From an uncultured virus (IMG/VR IMGVR_UViG_3300020358_000003) (lineage: Duplodnaviria > Heunggongvirae > Uroviricota > Caudoviricetes), in the IMG/VR virus record IMGVR_UViG_3300020358_000003: a DNA stretch of 20,000 bases; one strand, 5' to 3'. This document shows, one piece after another, positions 7,609-14,399 of this stretch (the first letter of the stretch is position 1; each line of letters starts with the position of its first letter). The translations under genes were made by a program, and so were the position numbers. The notes under the pieces were generated by a model. It was not told the origin of the DNA. It did no database searches and saw only the letters and a list, made by a program, of their open reading frames with translations.

Positions 7609-8574
7609 ATGAATACTCAGAGTGACTTCTGTAATACAAATGAATTTCTGTGGGTGGAGAAGTACCGCCCACAGAAAATTGAAAGAACTATCCTACCAAA
7701 AGAACTAAAGCAAAATCTACAAAAAATCGTTGAGACCGCCGAAATTCCTAACATGCTATTTACTGGAACCGCTGGTCTCGGCAAAACAACAGTTGCCAAA
7801 GCATTATGTAATACATTAGGTTTGGATTACATAATAATTAATGGCTCTGAAGATGGTAATATTGATACCTTGCGTGGCAAGATCAAACAATTTGCTTCTA
7901 CTGTATCATTGCAAGGTGGTTATAAGGTTGTGATCTTAGATGAGGCAGACTACCTCAATCCACAATCAACTCAACCTGCTTTGCGTGGATTTATAGAAGA
8001 ATTTAGCAACAATTGTCGCTTTATAATGACATGCAATTTTAAGAATAGAATTATTGAACCTTTACATTCCAGATGTGGTGTATATGAGTTTAATACGACT
8101 AAAAAAGAAATGGCTGGTCTTTGTGGGGATTTTCTTAAACACGCTAGAAATATTCTTGAACAAGAGAATGTAAAATTTGAAGATCAAGACCTTGTTAATA
8201 TTATTATGAAACATGCTCCTGATTGGAGAAGGGTTTTAAATGAAACACAAAGACGATCTATGGGTGGTATTCTTAGTGGGAATAGTTCTAGTAATACTGG
8301 TATTAATGAAATTGACTCTCTCTTAAAGTTCATCAAAGACAAAGACTTTAAGAAAATGCGTTCTTGGGTGGTCAATAATATTGATACGGATAGTTCTGCT
8401 ATTTTTAGGGGAATTTATGATAAAATGTCAAATCATATAAAACCACACGCTATCCCTCAAGTTGTGTTAATTCTTGCAGAATATCAATATAAAAATGCTT
8501 TTGTTGCTGATTTAGAAATCAATACAGTTGCGTGTCTAACTGAAATAATGGCAAATGTGGAGTTCATAGAATGA
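7609..8574 (+). CDS. gp44: Clamp loader large subunit gp44 (AAA+)
   Basis: LWVEKYRP, GTAGLGKTT, ILDEAD, SRC motif. Confidence 0.96.
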   Translation: MNTQSDFCNTNEFLWVEKYRPQKIERTILPKELKQNLQKIVETAEIPNMLFTGTAGLGKTTVAKALCNTLGLDYIIINGSEDGNIDTLRGKIKQFASTVSLQGGYKVVILDEADYLNPQSTQPALRGFIEEFSNNCRFIMTCNFKNRIIEPLHSRCGVYEFNTTKKEMAGLCGDFLKHARNILEQENVKFEDQDLVNIIMKHAPDWRRVLNETQRRSMGGILSGNSSSNTGINEIDSLLKFIKDKDFKKMRSWVVNNIDTDSSAIFRGIYDKMSNHIKPHAIPQVVLILAEYQYKNAFVADLEINTVACLTEIMANVEFIE

Positions 8575-9182
8575 GTGTTGCTTATGAAGGATTAAATGAT
8601 TGTGTGATATATGACTTTGAAACACTTTCTGTTGATGTAAACAGAGGTGTTGTATTATCTTTAGGTCTGCTTACTTTCTCTAGGGCGAGATTTACAAATA
8701 ATCCATACAGTTATGAAGAACTTTTAGATGGTAGTGTTGGTATTAAATATGATGTTAAAAAACAAGTGGAAGTTTATGATCGTAAAATTTCAAAATCTAC
8801 ACTTGATTGGTGGAATAAACAGCCCAAAGAAACAACAGCAGCAGTGATGGTTCCATCAGAAAATGATAAAGATATTAGCGAAACCTATAACTTTTTTGTG
8901 CAGAATGTAAATATCAATAACCTAAAAACTGTGTTTTCTCGCGGAAATACCTTTGATATTCCTTTCTTTGAAGGTATCTTAAATGATACTGGTAAAAAAG
9001 TTCCTTATCCATTTTGGATGGTTCGTGATACAAGATCATTTCTTGATGGTTTGCTTTGGGGGTCTGGTGTTAAGAACGATTATATTCCAGAAGGATGTGC
9101 AGAAAAGTTTGTTAAACATGATGCGCGGCATGATTGTGTAATGGATGTAATGCGTATGCAAACAGTGATACAAAACCTATGA
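8571..9182 (+). CDS. dexA: DEDDh 3'-5' exonuclease, DexA-like
   Basis: DFETL (ExoI), TLDWW, RGNTFD (ExoII), RDTRS, HDARHD (ExoIII). Confidence 0.75.
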   Translation: MSVAYEGLNDCVIYDFETLSVDVNRGVVLSLGLLTFSRARFTNNPYSYEELLDGSVGIKYDVKKQVEVYDRKISKSTLDWWNKQPKETTAAVMVPSENDKDISETYNFFVQNVNINNLKTVFSRGNTFDIPFFEGILNDTGKKVPYPFWMVRDTRSFLDGLLWGSGVKNDYIPEGCAEKFVKHDARHDCVMDVMRMQTVIQNL

Positions 9183-9561: not shown

Positions 9562-9569
9562 TATAAATA
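9562..9569 (+). promoter_or_regulatory. T4-type late promoter upstream of regA and the island
   Basis: Exact intergenic TATAAATA. Confidence 0.7.
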
Positions 9570-9610
9570 CCATTGTCATTAATGAATATAACAAAAAAAG
9601 TGAGTTGACA

Positions 9611-10024
9611 ATGAATGAAGAAACAAATATAGTAAATTGGTCACCAACTGATATGTTGGAGATAACTTTAAATGAACCTGATGATTTCTTAAAAGTAAGA
9701 GAAACATTAACACGAATTGGTGTATCAAGTAGGAAAGAAAATAAACTATTTCAATCTTGTCATATCCTTCATAAACAAGGTAGATACTTTATAGTCCATT
9801 TTAAAGAGTTGTTTTTGCTAGATGGTAAAAAATCAAACTTAGAAGAAAGCGACATAGGCCGTAGAAATACTATCGCTACACTTATGTCAGATTGGGGTCT
9901 AGTCTCCATACAAAATGAATCAGTTGCTAAAAATTTAGCACCTCTGCGACAGATTAAGATTATTCCTTTTAAAGAAAAAAATAATTGGGAACTATGCCCC
10001 AAGTATAATATAGGAAGAAAATAA
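9611..10024 (+). CDS. regA: Translational repressor RegA
   Basis: PDDFLKVRETLTRIG, LFQSCHILHKQGRYFIVHFKELF, W.L.PKY.IG; alternative TTG start at 9605. Confidence 0.97.
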   Translation: MNEETNIVNWSPTDMLEITLNEPDDFLKVRETLTRIGVSSRKENKLFQSCHILHKQGRYFIVHFKELFLLDGKKSNLEESDIGRRNTIATLMSDWGLVSIQNESVAKNLAPLRQIKIIPFKEKNNWELCPKYNIGRK

Positions 10025-10588
10025 ATGCAGAGTTTCAAATCTCACCTTATAAATGAAAGTGCGCTTAGTGCGCTAAGAACTGCGACGAAAGCCCACAAAG
10101 GGCAGTTTAGAAAAAGTGGTGGTGAATACATTGCTCATCCAAAAGAAGTCGCTAAAATAGTTGCTAAGTTCAAACCAAAATCAAAAAATTTATCTGCATT
10201 AGTTCAAGCAGCATATCTGCATGATACTATAGAAGATACTGATTTATCACACGCTGACTTAGTTAAGCAGTTTGGTGGGTTGGTTGCCAATCTTGTTGAC
10301 CAATTGACCACTAAAAAAGATGATCTGGAAGCAGCAGGTGGTAAGGGTGAGTATATAAAAGATAAGATGGTCAACATGACAAGTTGGGCATTAGTTATTA
10401 AACTCGCTGATAGACTTGCTAATGTATCTGATATTAAGCAGCAGAAACCAGAATGGCAAAGAAAATATGCTGGCGATACAAAATTGGCGTTAGACGCTGT
10501 AAAAAGAGATAGAAAACATTTGAGTCCTACGCATAAGAAAATTATTAAGAATATAGAAACTATTATCAAACCTTATGTGAAAGGATAA
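10025..10588 (+). CDS. Stand-alone RelA/SpoT-family HD hydrolase (Mesh1/SAH-like) with internal-protein-like leader
   Basis: AH.GQ.RKSG..YI.HP..V, AAYLHDTIEDT, V..LT, IKLADRLAN; no synthetase domain. Confidence 0.9.
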   Translation: MQSFKSHLINESALSALRTATKAHKGQFRKSGGEYIAHPKEVAKIVAKFKPKSKNLSALVQAAYLHDTIEDTDLSHADLVKQFGGLVANLVDQLTTKKDDLEAAGGKGEYIKDKMVNMTSWALVIKLADRLANVSDIKQQKPEWQRKYAGDTKLALDAVKRDRKHLSPTHKKIIKNIETIIKPYVKG

Positions 10589-10593
10589 ATTCT

Positions 10594-10941
10594 ATGAAAC
10601 TTTTTTCTAAATTTATAACAGAAATAACTAAAAATCAACGTAAAAAGAAAGAAGCCTATGCTTTGACATATGTTAGGCAAGGCAAGATGGGTATTCTAAG
10701 AATTAGGCCATTACCAGGAAGCAAGTGGGTTGAGGTACGTGGTAAGGTGGGATTTGAAAATAATTACGATGAAAATGATTATTTACACAGAACTATGACT
10801 CTTATCGGTAAAGGTGTAAATGTATCTGAATTTGTAAATGGTTCAGAGGTTGTACTATATGATAGAGGTGATAAAGTTGCAAAACTAGCATTAAGAGCAG
10901 TTAGGGCAATTGTAAAATATCCAGACGTACAGCATTGGTAG
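10594..10941 (+). CDS. Hypothetical protein with internal-protein-like leader
   Basis: 115-aa ORF, AAGGA RBS, tight spacing, starts MKLFSKFITE. Confidence 0.7.
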   Translation: MKLFSKFITEITKNQRKKKEAYALTYVRQGKMGILRIRPLPGSKWVEVRGKVGFENNYDENDYLHRTMTLIGKGVNVSEFVNGSEVVLYDRGDKVAKLALRAVRAIVKYPDVQHW

Positions 10942-10951
10942 GTAATAATAA

Positions 10952-12160
10952 ATGAAAAGTTTTATATCTCATTTAAATGAAAGTATGTTAGAAAAACTTT
11001 TAACTATGAAAGTTAGAAAGTCTATTAAAAACGCTGGTGGTAAAATCTATCAAATTGGTGGTGTGGTTCGTGATGAACTACTTGGAAAGGTTTCAAAAGA
11101 CTTAGACTTAATCGTTGTTGGTGTAGAACTAAGCGATTTAGAAGAAATATTAAAGCCTCACGGTAAAGTGAATATGGTTGGCAAATCTTTTGGTATTCTA
11201 AAATTTGTACCAACAGGCTCAACAGAAGAAGAAGATGTTGATATTTCAGTACCAAGAGTTGACTCTAAGAGTACTGGGGCTGGTCATAAAGATTTTGAGG
11301 TACAATTAGGAAAAGGTATTACTTTACAACAAGATCAGTTGAGAAGAGATTTTTGGATAAATCAATTGGCTAAAGATGTTGATACTGGAGAGATTATTGA
11401 CACTGATGGCAAGGGTATGAAAGATATTAAGAATAAAGAAATTCGTATGATCAGTCCTACTTCATTTGAAGATGATCCTTTAAGAATGTTAAGAGCCATT
11501 CAATTCGCGGCTAGGTTTGAATTTAAAATTGAAAAAAATACTTTCAAGGAAATGAAAAAACAAGCACATACTATTTCATCAGTTTCTTCTGATAGATTCA
11601 ATGAAGAATTTAAAAAACTTTTCACCAAATCAAAAAAACCATCAATCGGTGTAAAACTTTTATTTGAAAGTGGATTGATTAAACATTTATTCCCAAAGGC
11701 ATCCATTAAAGACATTAATTTAAAAGCATTAGATAAACTAGAAACTAAAAACTATGGTGCTTTTATAGGAATGGTTCTAATGAGTTATAAACAAGATGCT
11801 GGTAAAATCGCCAAGGCTGGAATGAAATTATCTAATATTGATTCCAAAGCAGTTCAATCTGTAACTTCATACAAAGATATGGATTTAGTTAAATTAGTTG
11901 GATGGGCTAAAGATAACGATATTAAATCTGTTGATGCCTATCTTACTGCTATAGGAAAACCAACAGTATCATCAAAATTAAAAGGTGTTAAATACCTTTC
12001 AATTAAAGAACTACCTATAAATGGAAAAGATGTTTCTCAATTGGGGTTTAAAGGTAAGAGTATAGGTGATGCTTTACAATCTGCATTAGATTTCTCTATT
12101 AAGACTAATAAAACAAGTAAAAACGATCTTCTTAAACATATAAATAGTAAGAACAAATGA
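10952..12160 (+). CDS. cca: Class II tRNA nucleotidyltransferase (CCA-adding / PcnB superfamily)
   Basis: GGVVRD..L....DLD (motif A), RRDFWIN (B), FEDDPLRMLRA (D), DR..EE (E), C-terminal L.INGKD....G..G..IG tail; no fused HD domain. Confidence 0.88.
   Translation: MKSFISHLNESMLEKLLTMKVRKSIKNAGGKIYQIGGVVRDELLGKVSKDLDLIVVGVELSDLEEILKPHGKVNMVGKSFGILKFVPTGSTEEEDVDISVPRVDSKSTGAGHKDFEVQLGKGITLQQDQLRRDFWINQLAKDVDTGEIIDTDGKGMKDIKNKEIRMISPTSFEDDPLRMLRAIQFAARFEFKIEKNTFKEMKKQAHTISSVSSDRFNEEFKKLFTKSKKPSIGVKLLFESGLIKHLFPKASIKDINLKALDKLETKNYGAFIGMVLMSYKQDAGKIAKAGMKLSNIDSKAVQSVTSYKDMDLVKLVGWAKDNDIKSVDAYLTAIGKPTVSSKLKGVKYLSIKELPINGKDVSQLGFKGKSIGDALQSALDFSIKTNKTSKNDLLKHINSKNK
12139..12146 (+). promoter_or_regulatory. 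T4-type late promoter
   Basis: TATAAATA within the last codons of cca, 29 nt upstream of the next start, which has an AAGGA RBS. Confidence 0.6.
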
Positions 12161-12174
12161 TAAAGGACTGAAAC

Positions 12175-12747
12175 ATGGCATGGGTAACTATTACAAATAA
12201 TCCGAGTTGGCAATATGACAATGCCCCTGCTGATCCTGGTGCTAATAGCCCATTACGACCCTTATGGTTAAAGCAAACCAGCGGAGTTAGAACTACCAAT
12301 GGTCATGAGGTATATACAAGTGTTCGCAAAACTATCGCGGGAACTGGTACTGTTACTTTTGCTATAACTGTTTCAAATCCAGGAGTAGGAAATAGATACT
12401 ATATAGATGGTGTTGGTCCTGCTAGAATATTAAGTTTGACAGAAGGTAGAACATACCGATTCGATCAAAGCGCATCTTCTAATTCTGGGCATCCACTTAG
12501 ATTTTCTATTACGTCAAATGGAACGCATGGCGGCGGGAGCGAGTACACAACAGGAGTAACAACAGCAGGAACTCCAGGAAGTTCTGGGGCATATACTCAG
12601 ATATCTGTGGCTGTTGGTGCGCCTACCTTATATTATTACTGTACAAACCACAGCAATATGGGCGGGACTGCAAACACTCCAGCATCTAGTACATCTACAG
12701 TTTCTATGGGTGAAATTAGTAAAACTTTTTGGGATAATGTATCATGA
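12175..12747 (+). CDS. Probable virion-associated protein with a cupredoxin-like domain
   Basis: L.EGRTYRFDQS..SN.GHPLRFS...LYYYCTNHSNMGG; G/T/S-rich; late promoter upstream. Confidence 0.7.
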   Translation: MAWVTITNNPSWQYDNAPADPGANSPLRPLWLKQTSGVRTTNGHEVYTSVRKTIAGTGTVTFAITVSNPGVGNRYYIDGVGPARILSLTEGRTYRFDQSASSNSGHPLRFSITSNGTHGGGSEYTTGVTTAGTPGSSGAYTQISVAVGAPTLYYYCTNHSNMGGTANTPASSTSTVSMGEISKTFWDNVS

Positions 12748-13013
12748 TTAAGTTTATGACATTTATAACTGATGAGTATCAGAGAGATTACAAAAAAGAA
12801 CGAAAAAACTATCTTGGAACTCCAGAGCAGATGGAGAGAAACGCCGCTAGAAAACGCGCTAGAAGAAAGATGGAAAAAGAGGGTAAGGCAGAGCCTTTTG
12901 ATGGAAGAGATATTCATCACAAAGATGGTGACCCACTCAATAATAATCCAAAAAACTTATCAAGTGTAACTGTCCATTATAATCGTAAAGAGCCAAGGAT
13001 GAGAGATAAATGA
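12744..13013 (+). CDS. Small HNH-family protein with internal-protein-like leader
   Basis: DIHHKDGDPLNN...NL......N.K HNH core preceded by basic helix R..R.RARR. Confidence 0.8.
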   Translation: MIKFMTFITDEYQRDYKKERKNYLGTPEQMERNAARKRARRKMEKEGKAEPFDGRDIHHKDGDPLNNNPKNLSSVTVHYNRKEPRMRDK

Positions 13014-13276
13014 AATCTTTTAAAAATTTTAAAGAAGGTATGGACCGAGATGCTATCGCCATTTTTGCCAAAGAAGATGACGAAGAGGGTGGAGATATAA
13101 CCATTTATAAATTACCTAACGTCCCATATTATAACCATGGTTACGGTGATAAGGGATGGGTTGGTGATGTACGTTCAGATTATGATTTTTTCGCTAAAAG
13201 TATGGCAGAACTTAAACAAAAAATTAAACGTGCTGGTGGCAATCCAAATAAACCAATATATGGAAAACTAAAATGA
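13010..13276 (+). CDS. Hypothetical protein with internal-protein-like leader
   Basis: 88-aa ORF with ATGA overlaps at both ends; starts MKSFKNFKE. Confidence 0.7.
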   Translation: MKSFKNFKEGMDRDAIAIFAKEDDEEGGDITIYKLPNVPYYNHGYGDKGWVGDVRSDYDFFAKSMAELKQKIKRAGGNPNKPIYGKLK

Positions 13277-13674
13277 AAACATTCAAAAATTTTATAATAG
13301 AAGATAAATGTGATTTGGTAGGTATGAAACAAATCAAAGCATTTGAATCTATTGTTGATAAACTATTCAAAAAGTATGGAATTGATTTTAAATTCACTCG
13401 TCATTTTGGTGATAGGATGGGAGATGATAGAAATAATCCTTGTATTTCCATGAAAGAGTTGGCAGAATTTATAAAAAAGATTTATGCAAAGCAAGGCAAA
13501 TCCCTTAAAGGTGTTGCTGGTGCAGAAGCGGTAATTAAAGATATGCAAACTAATTTGAATATTCCAGTAGCAGTTAAGTATGATCAAAGAAATGATGAAT
13601 TTGATGTTGTACTGAAAACCATTATGCGTAAAAAAGATTTTAAAACTCCAGATAAGATAATACGATATGCGTAA
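13273..13674 (+). CDS. Hypothetical protein with internal-protein-like leader
   Basis: 133-aa ORF, ATGA overlap; starts MKTFKNFIIE; FTRHF.DR..D.RN and KTIMRK motifs. Confidence 0.75.
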   Translation: MKTFKNFIIEDKCDLVGMKQIKAFESIVDKLFKKYGIDFKFTRHFGDRMGDDRNNPCISMKELAEFIKKIYAKQGKSLKGVAGAEAVIKDMQTNLNIPVAVKYDQRNDEFDVVLKTIMRKKDFKTPDKIIRYA

Positions 13675-13709: not shown

Positions 13710-14399
13710 ATGAAATACTTTATATCAGCACCTTTTGGAAACTATTTAAAACTTCCTAACGCAATTAGCGTAACTGGAAGTTGGACTGTTGAAAAAAGAG
13801 AAGGACTCATTCCTCAAATTTTTAAAACTCTTAGGTATAAAAATGGTGGATGGATTAATAAAATTGGATTGCGTAACGCAGGAATATATGAAGGTTTAAA
13901 AAGAACAAACTCTACAGATGTGTTGAGCCTTGCCGCAATAAATGAATATGATTGGATAAATTTAGACCGCATAGTAGGTAAAAATTTGTCTGTTGAAATT
14001 AATATAAGTTGTCCAAACCTTGATAAAGATGTAGGAGCGGTTAATCTTCGCGGATTTGATTTATTTCCTAAAAATAACAGAGAATGGTGTATATGTAAGA
14101 TACCGCCTACTGCGACAGAATGTCTCATAGACAAGATAGTAGATTTGGGGTATAATCAAATACATGCAAGCAACACTTTGTACTCTTTAAATGGGGGTCA
14201 AAGTGGAACAATTTTAAAACCATATACTACAAGGATTATAGAATATATAAAGAGAAAACATCCCAGTGTCACTATAATCGCTGGTGGTGGGGTTACAAAT
14301 AAGGATGATGCAGAATTTTATTTTGATAAAGGCGCAGACTATGTAAGTCTAGGAACAGTATGTTTCACACCTTGGAAAATAAAAAACATAATTTCTTAA
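13710..14399 (+). CDS. Dihydroorotate dehydrogenase-like FMN TIM-barrel (class 1-like, short)
   Basis: INKIGLRN.G, EINISCPN (catalytic Cys loop), SNT, GG.SG, IIAGGGV, GAD.V.LGT. Confidence 0.8.
   Translation: MKYFISAPFGNYLKLPNAISVTGSWTVEKREGLIPQIFKTLRYKNGGWINKIGLRNAGIYEGLKRTNSTDVLSLAAINEYDWINLDRIVGKNLSVEINISCPNLDKDVGAVNLRGFDLFPKNNREWCICKIPPTATECLIDKIVDLGYNQIHASNTLYSLNGGQSGTILKPYTTRIIEYIKRKHPSVTIIAGGGVTNKDDAEFYFDKGADYVSLGTVCFTPWKIKNIIS

Follow-up and report, generated by a model that had tools for sequence, protein, structure and literature searches.

A regA-to-hsp20 island of leader-tagged genes, including a SpoT-type hydrolase and a CCA-type nucleotidyltransferase, resembles T4 capsid-targeted cargo in an uncultured marine T4-like myovirus

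The 20,000-nucleotide stretch of DNA analysed here, which we call the window, comes from an uncultured virus (IMG/VR record IMGVR_UViG_3300020358_000003), a marine T4-like myovirus, and spans its replication region. Between regA and hsp20 it carries an island with at least six genes whose products begin with related short leaders: a stand-alone RelA/SpoT-type HD hydrolase (the HD enzyme), a 115-aa open reading frame (ORF), a class II tRNA nucleotidyltransferase of the CCA-adding type (the CCA enzyme), an HNH protein, an 88-aa ORF and a 133-aa ORF (Table 1). These leaders resemble the N-terminal sequence that targets internal proteins to the capsid in phage T4, and most of what follows concerns what this likeness means for the two enzymes.

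A first-pass annotation of the window had called a stand-alone SpoT-type hydrolase and a class II tRNA nucleotidyltransferase one unfamiliar ORF apart, and all three calls were borne out by profile searches. The HD enzyme scores 57.9 bits against Pfam HD_4 (gathering cut-off 27.2), and its residues 16-153 align with positions 1-138 of the TIGR00691 spoT_relA model. It consists of a single domain, with Pfam matches to HD_4 and HD only and none to a synthetase domain. Its nearest solved structures are the hydrolase domains of long Rel proteins (4.7e-17), followed by MESH1 (4.7e-12) and bacterial small alarmone hydrolases (SAHs; 1e-10 to 4e-6). The segments AHP, LHDTIED and KLADRLAN lie in register with the Rel hydrolase chains, and the residues that we take to be catalytic (the H of HP, HD, ED, and the D and N of ADRLxN) are all kept, which predicts a RelA/SpoT-family hydrolase with all of its catalytic motifs. 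The intervening 115-aa ORF matches no family in Pfam, PHROGs or NCBIfam.

The CCA enzyme matches PolyA_pol at 65.6 bits (cut-off 23), PolyA_pol_RNAbd at 57.5 bits (cut-off 22) and PHROG 2244, 'tRNA nucleotidyltransferase', at 1.9e-57. Its closest solved relative is 3h37 (1.2e-22), deposited as a tRNA nucleotidyl transferase-related protein and presumably the Thermotoga CCA-adding enzyme, with which its IGGVVRD, DLDL, RRDFWIN and DDPLRMLRA segments align. If, as we assume, these correspond to motifs A-D of class II nucleotidyltransferases (GGxVRD, DxD, RRDF and [ED]DxxR), the predicted enzyme has all four intact. Pfam finds no C-terminal HD phosphoesterase domain of the E. coli-type multifunctional CCA protein in the 402 residues.

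Is it a CCA-adding enzyme in the strict sense? The protein falls under every NCBIfam equivalog cut-off, the best CCA model reaching 126 bits against a required 438.8, and we therefore place it in the family without equivalog status; because the pcnB model scores nearly alike (115.4 bits), CCA-adding, A-adding and poly(A) activities are left undistinguished. These scores weigh against the CCA assignment and would suit an A-adding or poly(A)-type enzyme that tails host or phage RNAs, as would the solved relatives ranked second to fourth (4wby, 1vfg and 4wbz), which are deposited as 'Poly A polymerase' and which we take to be the Aquifex A-adding enzyme. Against such a tailing enzyme stand the first-ranked structure, 3h37, with its shared DDPxR motif, the PHROG assignment, and the firmicute CCA model PRK13299, whose positions 10-368 of 396 align with residues 19-376 and so take in the body and tail. 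We give the tailing alternative a slender chance.

The first-pass annotation had also pointed to near-identical leaders on the two enzymes, and these read as quoted: the HD and CCA enzymes start with MQSFKSHLINES and MKSFISHLNES, respectively, and have an [LI]NE-S junction in common. In the T4 record, ipII and ipIII begin with MKTYQEFIAE and ipI with MKTFKEFTST. A review of T4 head assembly (accessible text of PMC9026906) assigns targeting by the T4 leader mainly to residues 4 and 7 and processing to residues 8 and 10, and the 10-residue tag is described as being cut off by gp21 while the cargo remains in the head (accessible parts of PMC10229621 and PMC5694885). The residues mapped in T4 (aromatic at 4 and 7, I or L at 8, E at 10) are present exactly in the leaders of the CCA enzyme, the 115-aa ORF and the 133-aa ORF. 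Of the 9317 internal 9-mers in proteins of the contig, none scores as high against the IPIII leader as the 133-aa ORF leader does, and a fraction of 0.0001 equals the score of the 115-aa ORF leader. One HD orthologue begins with MKRFKEFTSH, which agrees with T4 IPI at 8 of 10 residues.

The likeness is beyond chance. In 99 related IMG/VR loci, 126 of 994 distinct plus-strand ORFs open with the leader pattern, which occurs at none of 1047 minus-strand ORF starts and at 6 of 4058 internal ATG positions. Because the pattern itself fixes some of the positions, we also tested families defined solely by homology of their mature parts, and the leaders proved to persist in orthologues identified only through their domains: all four T4-mapped positions hold in 31/53 distinct HD proteins, 14/17 CCA enzymes, 20/20 proteins related to the 115-aa ORF, 11/12 related to the 133-aa ORF and 12/14 HNH proteins. 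Among untagged neighbours they hold in none of the gp44 (0/13), gp45 (0/18), RegA (0/9), gp62 (0/15) and exonuclease (0/17) proteins examined, and equally in none of the Hsp20 (0/13), dihydroorotate dehydrogenase-like (0/12) and fibre-like (0/11) proteins or of two small ORF families (0/12 and 0/13). Leaderless homologues exist for both enzymes, in that a vibriophage HD homologue and the unrelated CCA enzyme of a 150-kb relative each begin directly with the domain. The nearest stand-alone CCA relatives (52-55% identity) again have leader-like N-termini, for example MLKFNQFISE and MRKFNSYLIE, which more distant ones lack.

At the DNA level the leaders vary freely between synonymous codons: lysine 5 is encoded by AAA in 46 cases and AAG in 21, tyrosine 7 by TAT in 30 and TAC in 12, all six leucine codons occur at position 8, and both serine codon boxes occur at position 3. 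Since synonymous codons change freely, it is the peptide on which selection acts. The proteins that follow the leader are diverse; after leader masking, those of the fetched loci fall into 24 unrelated families, among them an ADP-ribosyltransferase, a S-adenosylmethionine (SAM) lyase, a Zeta/AAA_33 kinase with an NT5C domain, DUF6267, DUF5824 and DUF6321. The first three are found as tagged genes in related contigs at L040:1047-1988, L037:3167-3754 and L134:8940-10118, the last encoding the Zeta/AAA_33-type kinase with its NT5C-like part. The tagged proteins are also selectively basic: five of the six mature tagged proteins of the contig have an isoelectric point (pI) of 9.55-10.04 and a net charge of +8.6 to +18, and a pI above 9 is seen in 3 of the 38 other contig proteins (tagged versus other, Mann-Whitney p 5.5e-5). 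For comparison, the mature T4 internal proteins lie at 9.0-9.65, the leaderless vibriophage HD protein at 5.98 and a leaderless CCA enzyme at 6.94.

Could the leader serve something other than packaging? It might instead be a common feature of translation starts or of a RegA operator, or a handle for gene shuffling by recombination, with the enzymes acting only after their synthesis in the infected cell, where the HD enzyme would lower (p)ppGpp and the CCA enzyme would serve phage tRNAs. The island does lie directly after regA, inside the replication module, and the DNA that encodes the leaders is rich in A and T, AAA and TTT codons being used in excess at positions 2 and 4. A related contig (L126) also shows what recombination at the leader may look like: its homology to the window covers the first 12 bases of the HD gene and then picks up again in the 115-aa ORF, at codon 8 (L126:5367-5714 versus window 10025-10036 plus 10616-10965), where its 115-aa ORF begins MQSF, like the HD enzyme. 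The HD gene thus seems to have been lost there by leader-to-leader crossover, and leaders therefore seem to act as points of recombination at which cargo genes are shuffled or deleted. However, a nucleotide-level function fits poorly with conservation that is seen at the amino-acid level while synonymous sites change, with conserved positions that are exactly those mapped in T4 for targeting and cleavage, and with the basic character of the tagged proteins, which leaderless homologues do not have.

As for service to phage tRNAs, phage CCA enzymes are usually taken as aids to tRNA maturation (accessible text of PMC3622015), and the first-pass annotation had named this role as one that would undercut its own idea. 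Here the CCA end is already encoded in 10/10 tRNA genes checked in two relatives (G002 and G003), which weakens a purely maturational role; both of these records are without the window-type CCA gene. We found no tRNA genes in two relatives that do carry it (G004 and G005) or in the 32.5-kb contig that contains the window. The 150-kb HD carrier mentioned above (G001, the record behind locus L069) has 31 tRNA matches, 27 of them in its first 13 kb. Taken together, we consider it rather unlikely that the leader lacks a packaging role.

The transcriptional setting is compatible with late cargo expression. An 8-nt box, TATAAATA, which we take to be the T4 late-promoter consensus, precedes regA and the gapless run that follows it, and a second copy lies inside the 3' end of the CCA gene (Table 1). 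The box upstream of regA is kept at 42-46 nt in 11/11 distinct upstream sequences of relatives, and the second box in 8/10.

We propose that the island is a set of T4-type capsid-tagged cargo genes whose products are packaged, processed and ejected, with the HD and CCA enzymes as independent modules, and we lean towards this proposal as a whole, if only slightly. Cargo genes would be transcribed late from the TATAAATA promoters; the leader would dock each product onto the gp22 scaffolding core of the prohead; the gp21 protease would cut it off after (L/I)-x-E; and the basic mature proteins would remain with the packed DNA and enter the next host on ejection. In that cell the HD enzyme would strip 3'-pyrophosphates before phage genes are expressed, from (p)ppGpp, (p)ppApp or 3'-pyrophosphorylated tRNA, and so would blunt the stringent response and alarmone-synthetase-type defences, and the CCA enzyme would supply tRNA 3' ends or rebuild them. 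The head genes called for by this scheme lie on the same contig directly upstream of the window, encoding a gp21-type prohead protease (Peptidase_S77, 2.1e-33; the gene is cut by the contig end), a gp22-type scaffold (T4_CASP, 1.2e-61) and gp23 (1.5e-144).

Several observations pull the other way. The HD leader is one residue longer than that of T4, which places its glutamate at 11 instead of 10, and the 88-aa ORF leader departs from the consensus at positions 8 and 10. Only 31 of the 53 HD orthologues have all four mapped positions, and five of the eight N-terminally extended HD ORFs are leaderless at the called start. The TATAAATA box shows no enrichment over the window as a whole (6 sites, with 4.09 expected and 43 of 200 shuffles reaching 6), and only its placement and conservation count. 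The island sits in the replication module, away from the head genes. Finally, packaging is proposed from likeness to T4. The first-pass annotation had described the enzymes as putatively virion-delivered; because the leader that they have in common is genuine and corresponds to the one that targets T4 proteins to the capsid, that is a reasonable reading and a well-founded inference from sequence, and both enzymes are probably injected ready-made along with the DNA.

A separate hint of delivery comes from the relatives of the CCA enzyme. Among its 150 closest representatives (139,844 residues) in a collection of 1.84 billion proteins, the CCA module is often embedded in long proteins, 87 of them having at least 600 aa and 61 at least 1000 aa; the giant relatives (P0016-P0138) span 600-2400 aa. 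Scanning 20 of these giants revealed ART-PolyVal in three, a 2H/Acb1-type domain in five and GNAT in one, and one of 1400 aa (P0045) is 100% identical to the product of a gene on a 95.8-kb IMG/VR viral contig (L219:6341-10540). In this they look like polyvalent proteins, which are believed to enter cells along with phage DNA, and the giants with ART-PolyVal or 2H/Acb1-type domains offer an independent hint of delivery.

If the enzymes are delivered, do they form one system? The first-pass annotation had suggested that they are a pair that could defeat toxSAS/CapRel-type defence in two steps, the HD enzyme unblocking tRNA 3' ends and the CCA enzyme rebuilding them. In favour of this, the two genes lie within 1 kb of one another in 16/25 informative syntenic contigs, that is, those with a readable interval from regA downstream, and the enzymes share the [LI]NE-S junction. 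A search of 50,697 phage records found 356 positive for HD and 499 positive for CCA, and among the matches listed at least three uncultured huge phages have both (LR756508.1, in which the two matches are 2.2 kb apart, LR756504.1 and LR745206.1). A 2H phosphoesterase beside the CCA module in 5/20 giant relatives would also suit a heal-then-add logic, and SAHs are known to act on pyrophosphorylated tRNA (accessible text of bioRxiv 10.1101/2021.04.30.441581).

The co-occurrence of the genes, which the first-pass annotation had offered as a check, speaks against a fixed pair. Beyond the 16 contigs with both, seven have HD only (L006, L008 and L015-L019) and two have the 115-aa ORF and CCA gene without HD (L126 and L128). 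These gains and losses are clean cassette indels by blastn breakpoints; L008, for example, is without exactly the segment listed as a cassette in Table 1, and its downstream break falls at the TATAAATA box. A set of 60 HD loci that are more distant (53-67% identity) lie in other clusters of tagged genes; their fetched flanks contain no CCA gene, and a relative of the 115-aa ORF adjoins HD in 15 of them. No PF01743 match was found in an HD-carrying genome of 182.7 kb that is 91% complete by CheckV (G002), nor in five further HD contigs of 39-57 kb, and the CCA gene of G001, of a different and leaderless type, lies 85 kb from HD. A profile built from 50 HD sequences matched none of the 150 closest CCA representatives (control 2e-48), so that no HD_4-like fusion is seen among them, and the 28 window proteins scanned include no match to a RelA/SpoT synthetase family, so that no toxSAS-type synthetase toxin gene adjoins the pair.

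Biochemistry from elsewhere points the same way. MESH1 alone and ATfaRel alone restore aminoacylation of FaRel2-modified tRNA (accessible text of bioRxiv 10.1101/2021.04.30.441581), and since a SAH by itself suffices for pyrophosphorylated tRNA, rebuilding of the CCA end is not required. An obligate two-enzyme unit is thus unlikely, and we rate the two-step system against toxSAS/CapRel-type defence as very improbable; the HD and CCA enzymes may instead be independent cargo modules that are possibly helpful to one another. A looser version, in which the two form an injected translation rescue kit, strikes us as quite improbable as well: the HD enzyme would clear tRNA 3'-pyrophosphates and alarmones within seconds of entry, the CCA enzyme would rebuild ends damaged by defence nucleases, tailing toxins or starvation, and immunity directed at tRNA 3' ends (CapRel and other toxSAS) would be disarmed before the first phage protein is made. 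Such a kit would be a capsid-delivered, 3'-end counterpart of T4 Pnk/Rnl1.

How widespread is the island? In a sample anchored on regA, which was blind to both genes and drawn from a scan of part of the collection, HD and CCA are absent from 66/66 loci that span regA to hsp20 or gp43, and 64 of these have no tagged ORF in that interval. Because none of the 66 carries either gene, the island appears special to this sub-lineage, in which the regA-to-hsp20 interval has turned into a cargo-gene island. Phage C48C1, the closest complete genome, has neither HD nor CCA between regA and hsp20. It has a leader-like gene run of its own away from that interval (L218:1467-12582), with starts MKFKTYLNE, LDFKNFITE, MLSFKQFVSE, MITFKKYLEE and MKKFKQYIDE. 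Melnitz and HTVC008M likewise have leader-like genes, and in all three phages these belong to other families.

Set beside known systems, we read the island as a variant of the internal-protein system of T4 whose cargo includes enzymes. As in T4 IPI, IPII, IPIII and Alt, an N-terminal leader (10-19 residues in this class) has aromatic residues at 4 and 7, I or L at 8 and E at the cut site, the mature forms are basic, gp21, gp22 and gp23 genes are present, and the cargo is unrelated and fast-changing. T4 Alt is an ADP-ribosyltransferase, and so is one tagged family in the relatives. Unlike the T4 internal proteins, which are small and inhibitor-like, the cargo here consists of a SpoT-type hydrolase, a CCA-type nucleotidyltransferase and an HNH protein, it is encoded between regA and hsp20, and its packaging is read from the genes.

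Each enzyme also has precedents of its own. Stand-alone phage alarmone hydrolases neutralise every toxSAS tested, and their use by incoming phages has been proposed (accessible text of PMC7229694); the examples are PaSpo of Salmonella phage SSU5 and PbcSpo of PVP-SE1 (same source), PaSpo being used in PMC9712102 as well. The HD enzyme resembles these in being a phage-encoded single-domain RelA/SpoT hydrolase and differs in its capsid-targeting leader, its strongly basic character and its greater nearness to long Rel domains than to solved bacterial SAHs. A review of jumbo phages places HD alarmone phosphodiesterases and CCA enzymes under counter-defence and RNA repair (accessible text of PMC7824862). 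With class II CCA enzymes, including 3h37 and jumbo-phage CCA genes, the window's enzyme shares the length of head, neck, body and tail and the GGxVRD, DxD, RRDF and DDPxRxLRA motifs; it differs in its ten-residue targeting leader, a pI of 9.55, the lack of a fused HD domain, a tRNA-free 32.5-kb contig and its giant multi-domain viral relatives. The island can also be compared with the polyvalent proteins found in phages and conjugative elements, which are believed to accompany phage DNA into cells (accessible text of PMC5512222). It resembles them in having ready-made effector enzymes that would come in with the DNA, ART-PolyVal in 3/20 giant CCA relatives being a further point of likeness; the window cargo differs in being encoded by separate small genes with one tag each and no polyprotein. 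The accessible text of PMC5512222 has no occurrence of 'CCA-adding' and names no such domain.

The first-pass annotation had suggested that such a packaged module was new. This holds in part: counter-defence by phage alarmone hydrolases is already in print (accessible text of PMC7229694), and our literature search turned up no description of a T4-type targeting leader in a marine T4-like phage, nor of a hydrolase or CCA enzyme that is packaged. The newer part is the tagged CCA enzyme with its giant relatives.

Should the tag function in the T4 manner, one could read from the genome which proteins a marine T4-like phage takes into its host, and here these would include enzymes acting on the host's alarm nucleotides and tRNA ends. 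Pre-made enzymes would act before phage gene expression, at the time when abortive infection and the stringent response decide the outcome. Cyanophage MazG was long believed to lower host (p)ppGpp, yet it cannot hydrolyse (p)ppGpp (accessible text of PMC6850273); a true SpoT-type hydrolase in this phage group would be a better candidate for that role. A capsid-tagged CCA enzyme, together with its giant relatives, would extend counter-defence by tRNA repair from the anticodon loop to the acceptor end.

Table 1. Positions of the leader-tagged genes, their leaders and associated elements in the window
Feature	Position	Strand	Basis or remark
Rv2179c-like 3'-5' exo(ribo)nuclease, between gp44 and gp62	8571-9182	+	Pfam 1.2e-15; PHROG 255 'exonuclease'; leaderless
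TATAAATA box	9562..9569	+	43 nt before regA; regA then HD, 115-aa ORF and CCA without gaps
regA translational repressor	9605..10024	+	Pfam Translat_reg 1.3e-42; stop codon abuts HD start codon
Stand-alone RelA/SpoT-type HD hydrolase, SAH architecture, 187 aa	10025..10588	+	Pfam, TIGR00691, structure alignments; mature pI 9.78
HD leader MQSFKSHLINE	10025..10057	+	Putative processing; proposed cleavage after E11, before S12
Cassette of 115-aa ORF and CCA, 1,560 bp	10579..12138	+	Missing in close relative L008 (flanks 95% and 87% identical); blastn breakpoints
115-aa basic protein, leader MKLFSKFITE	10594..10941	+	Between HD and CCA; without known family or fold
Class II tRNA nucleotidyltransferase (CCA-adding type), 402 aa	10952..12160	+	Pfam, PHROG, NCBIfam, structures; mature pI 9.55
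CCA enzyme leader MKSFISHLNE	10952..10981	+	Putative processing; proposed cleavage after E10
Second TATAAATA box	12139..12146	+	Inside CCA 3' end, 36 nt before next gene (12175)
190-aa tail-fibre-like protein, leaderless	12175..12747	+	PHROG tail fibre families down to 3.7e-21
89-aa HNH_3 protein, leader MIKFMTFITDE	12744..13013	+	Pfam and leader comparison
88-aa ORF, partial leader MKSFKNFKEG	13010..13276	+	Positions 8 and 10 deviate
133-aa ORF, leader MKTFKNFIIE	13273..13674	+	Contig's closest match to T4 IPIII leader

The fold of the 115-aa ORF product was pursued through structure prediction. An AlphaFold2 model from 16 sequences has a mean predicted local distance difference test score of 71.4, its best Foldseek match in the PDB has an E value of 0.5, and VIA-align against 48,161 chains gave a top Z of 3.7. 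ESM Atlas scores do not exceed 0.80 and give weak leads to 2H/Acb1 that are no better than chance. Further along the island, a leaderless 229-aa TIM-barrel protein that starts MKYFISAPFG (13710-14399, plus strand) is distantly dihydroorotate dehydrogenase-like (Pfam 9.6e-13) and lies far under the NCBIfam cut-offs.

The genes around the island are ordered as in a marine T4-like myovirus. The contig of 32.5 kb of viral DNA, with a G+C of 0.30-0.38, encodes in succession UvsY, UvsW, gp47, gp46, gp45, gp44, an Rv2179c-like exonuclease, gp62, RegA, the island, Hsp20, the gp43 DNA polymerase and a DNA methylase. The polymerase shares 57% identity with its counterpart in Phage C48C1 (Kyanoviridae) and about 49% with the polymerases of Synechococcus myoviruses. 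The Rv2179c-like exonuclease gene recurs in 5/80 regA-anchored loci (L180, L200, L202, L206 and L216). Past the 3' end of the window, the contig (L136:1823-8569) encodes a TET-associated glycosyltransferase (9e-41), a PEPCK-like protein (9.8e-92), an AIR-synthase-like protein, a phosphomannomutase-like protein, a cytidylyltransferase and a second N6/N4 DNA methylase, genes that may form a DNA-modification or sugar-nucleotide cluster.

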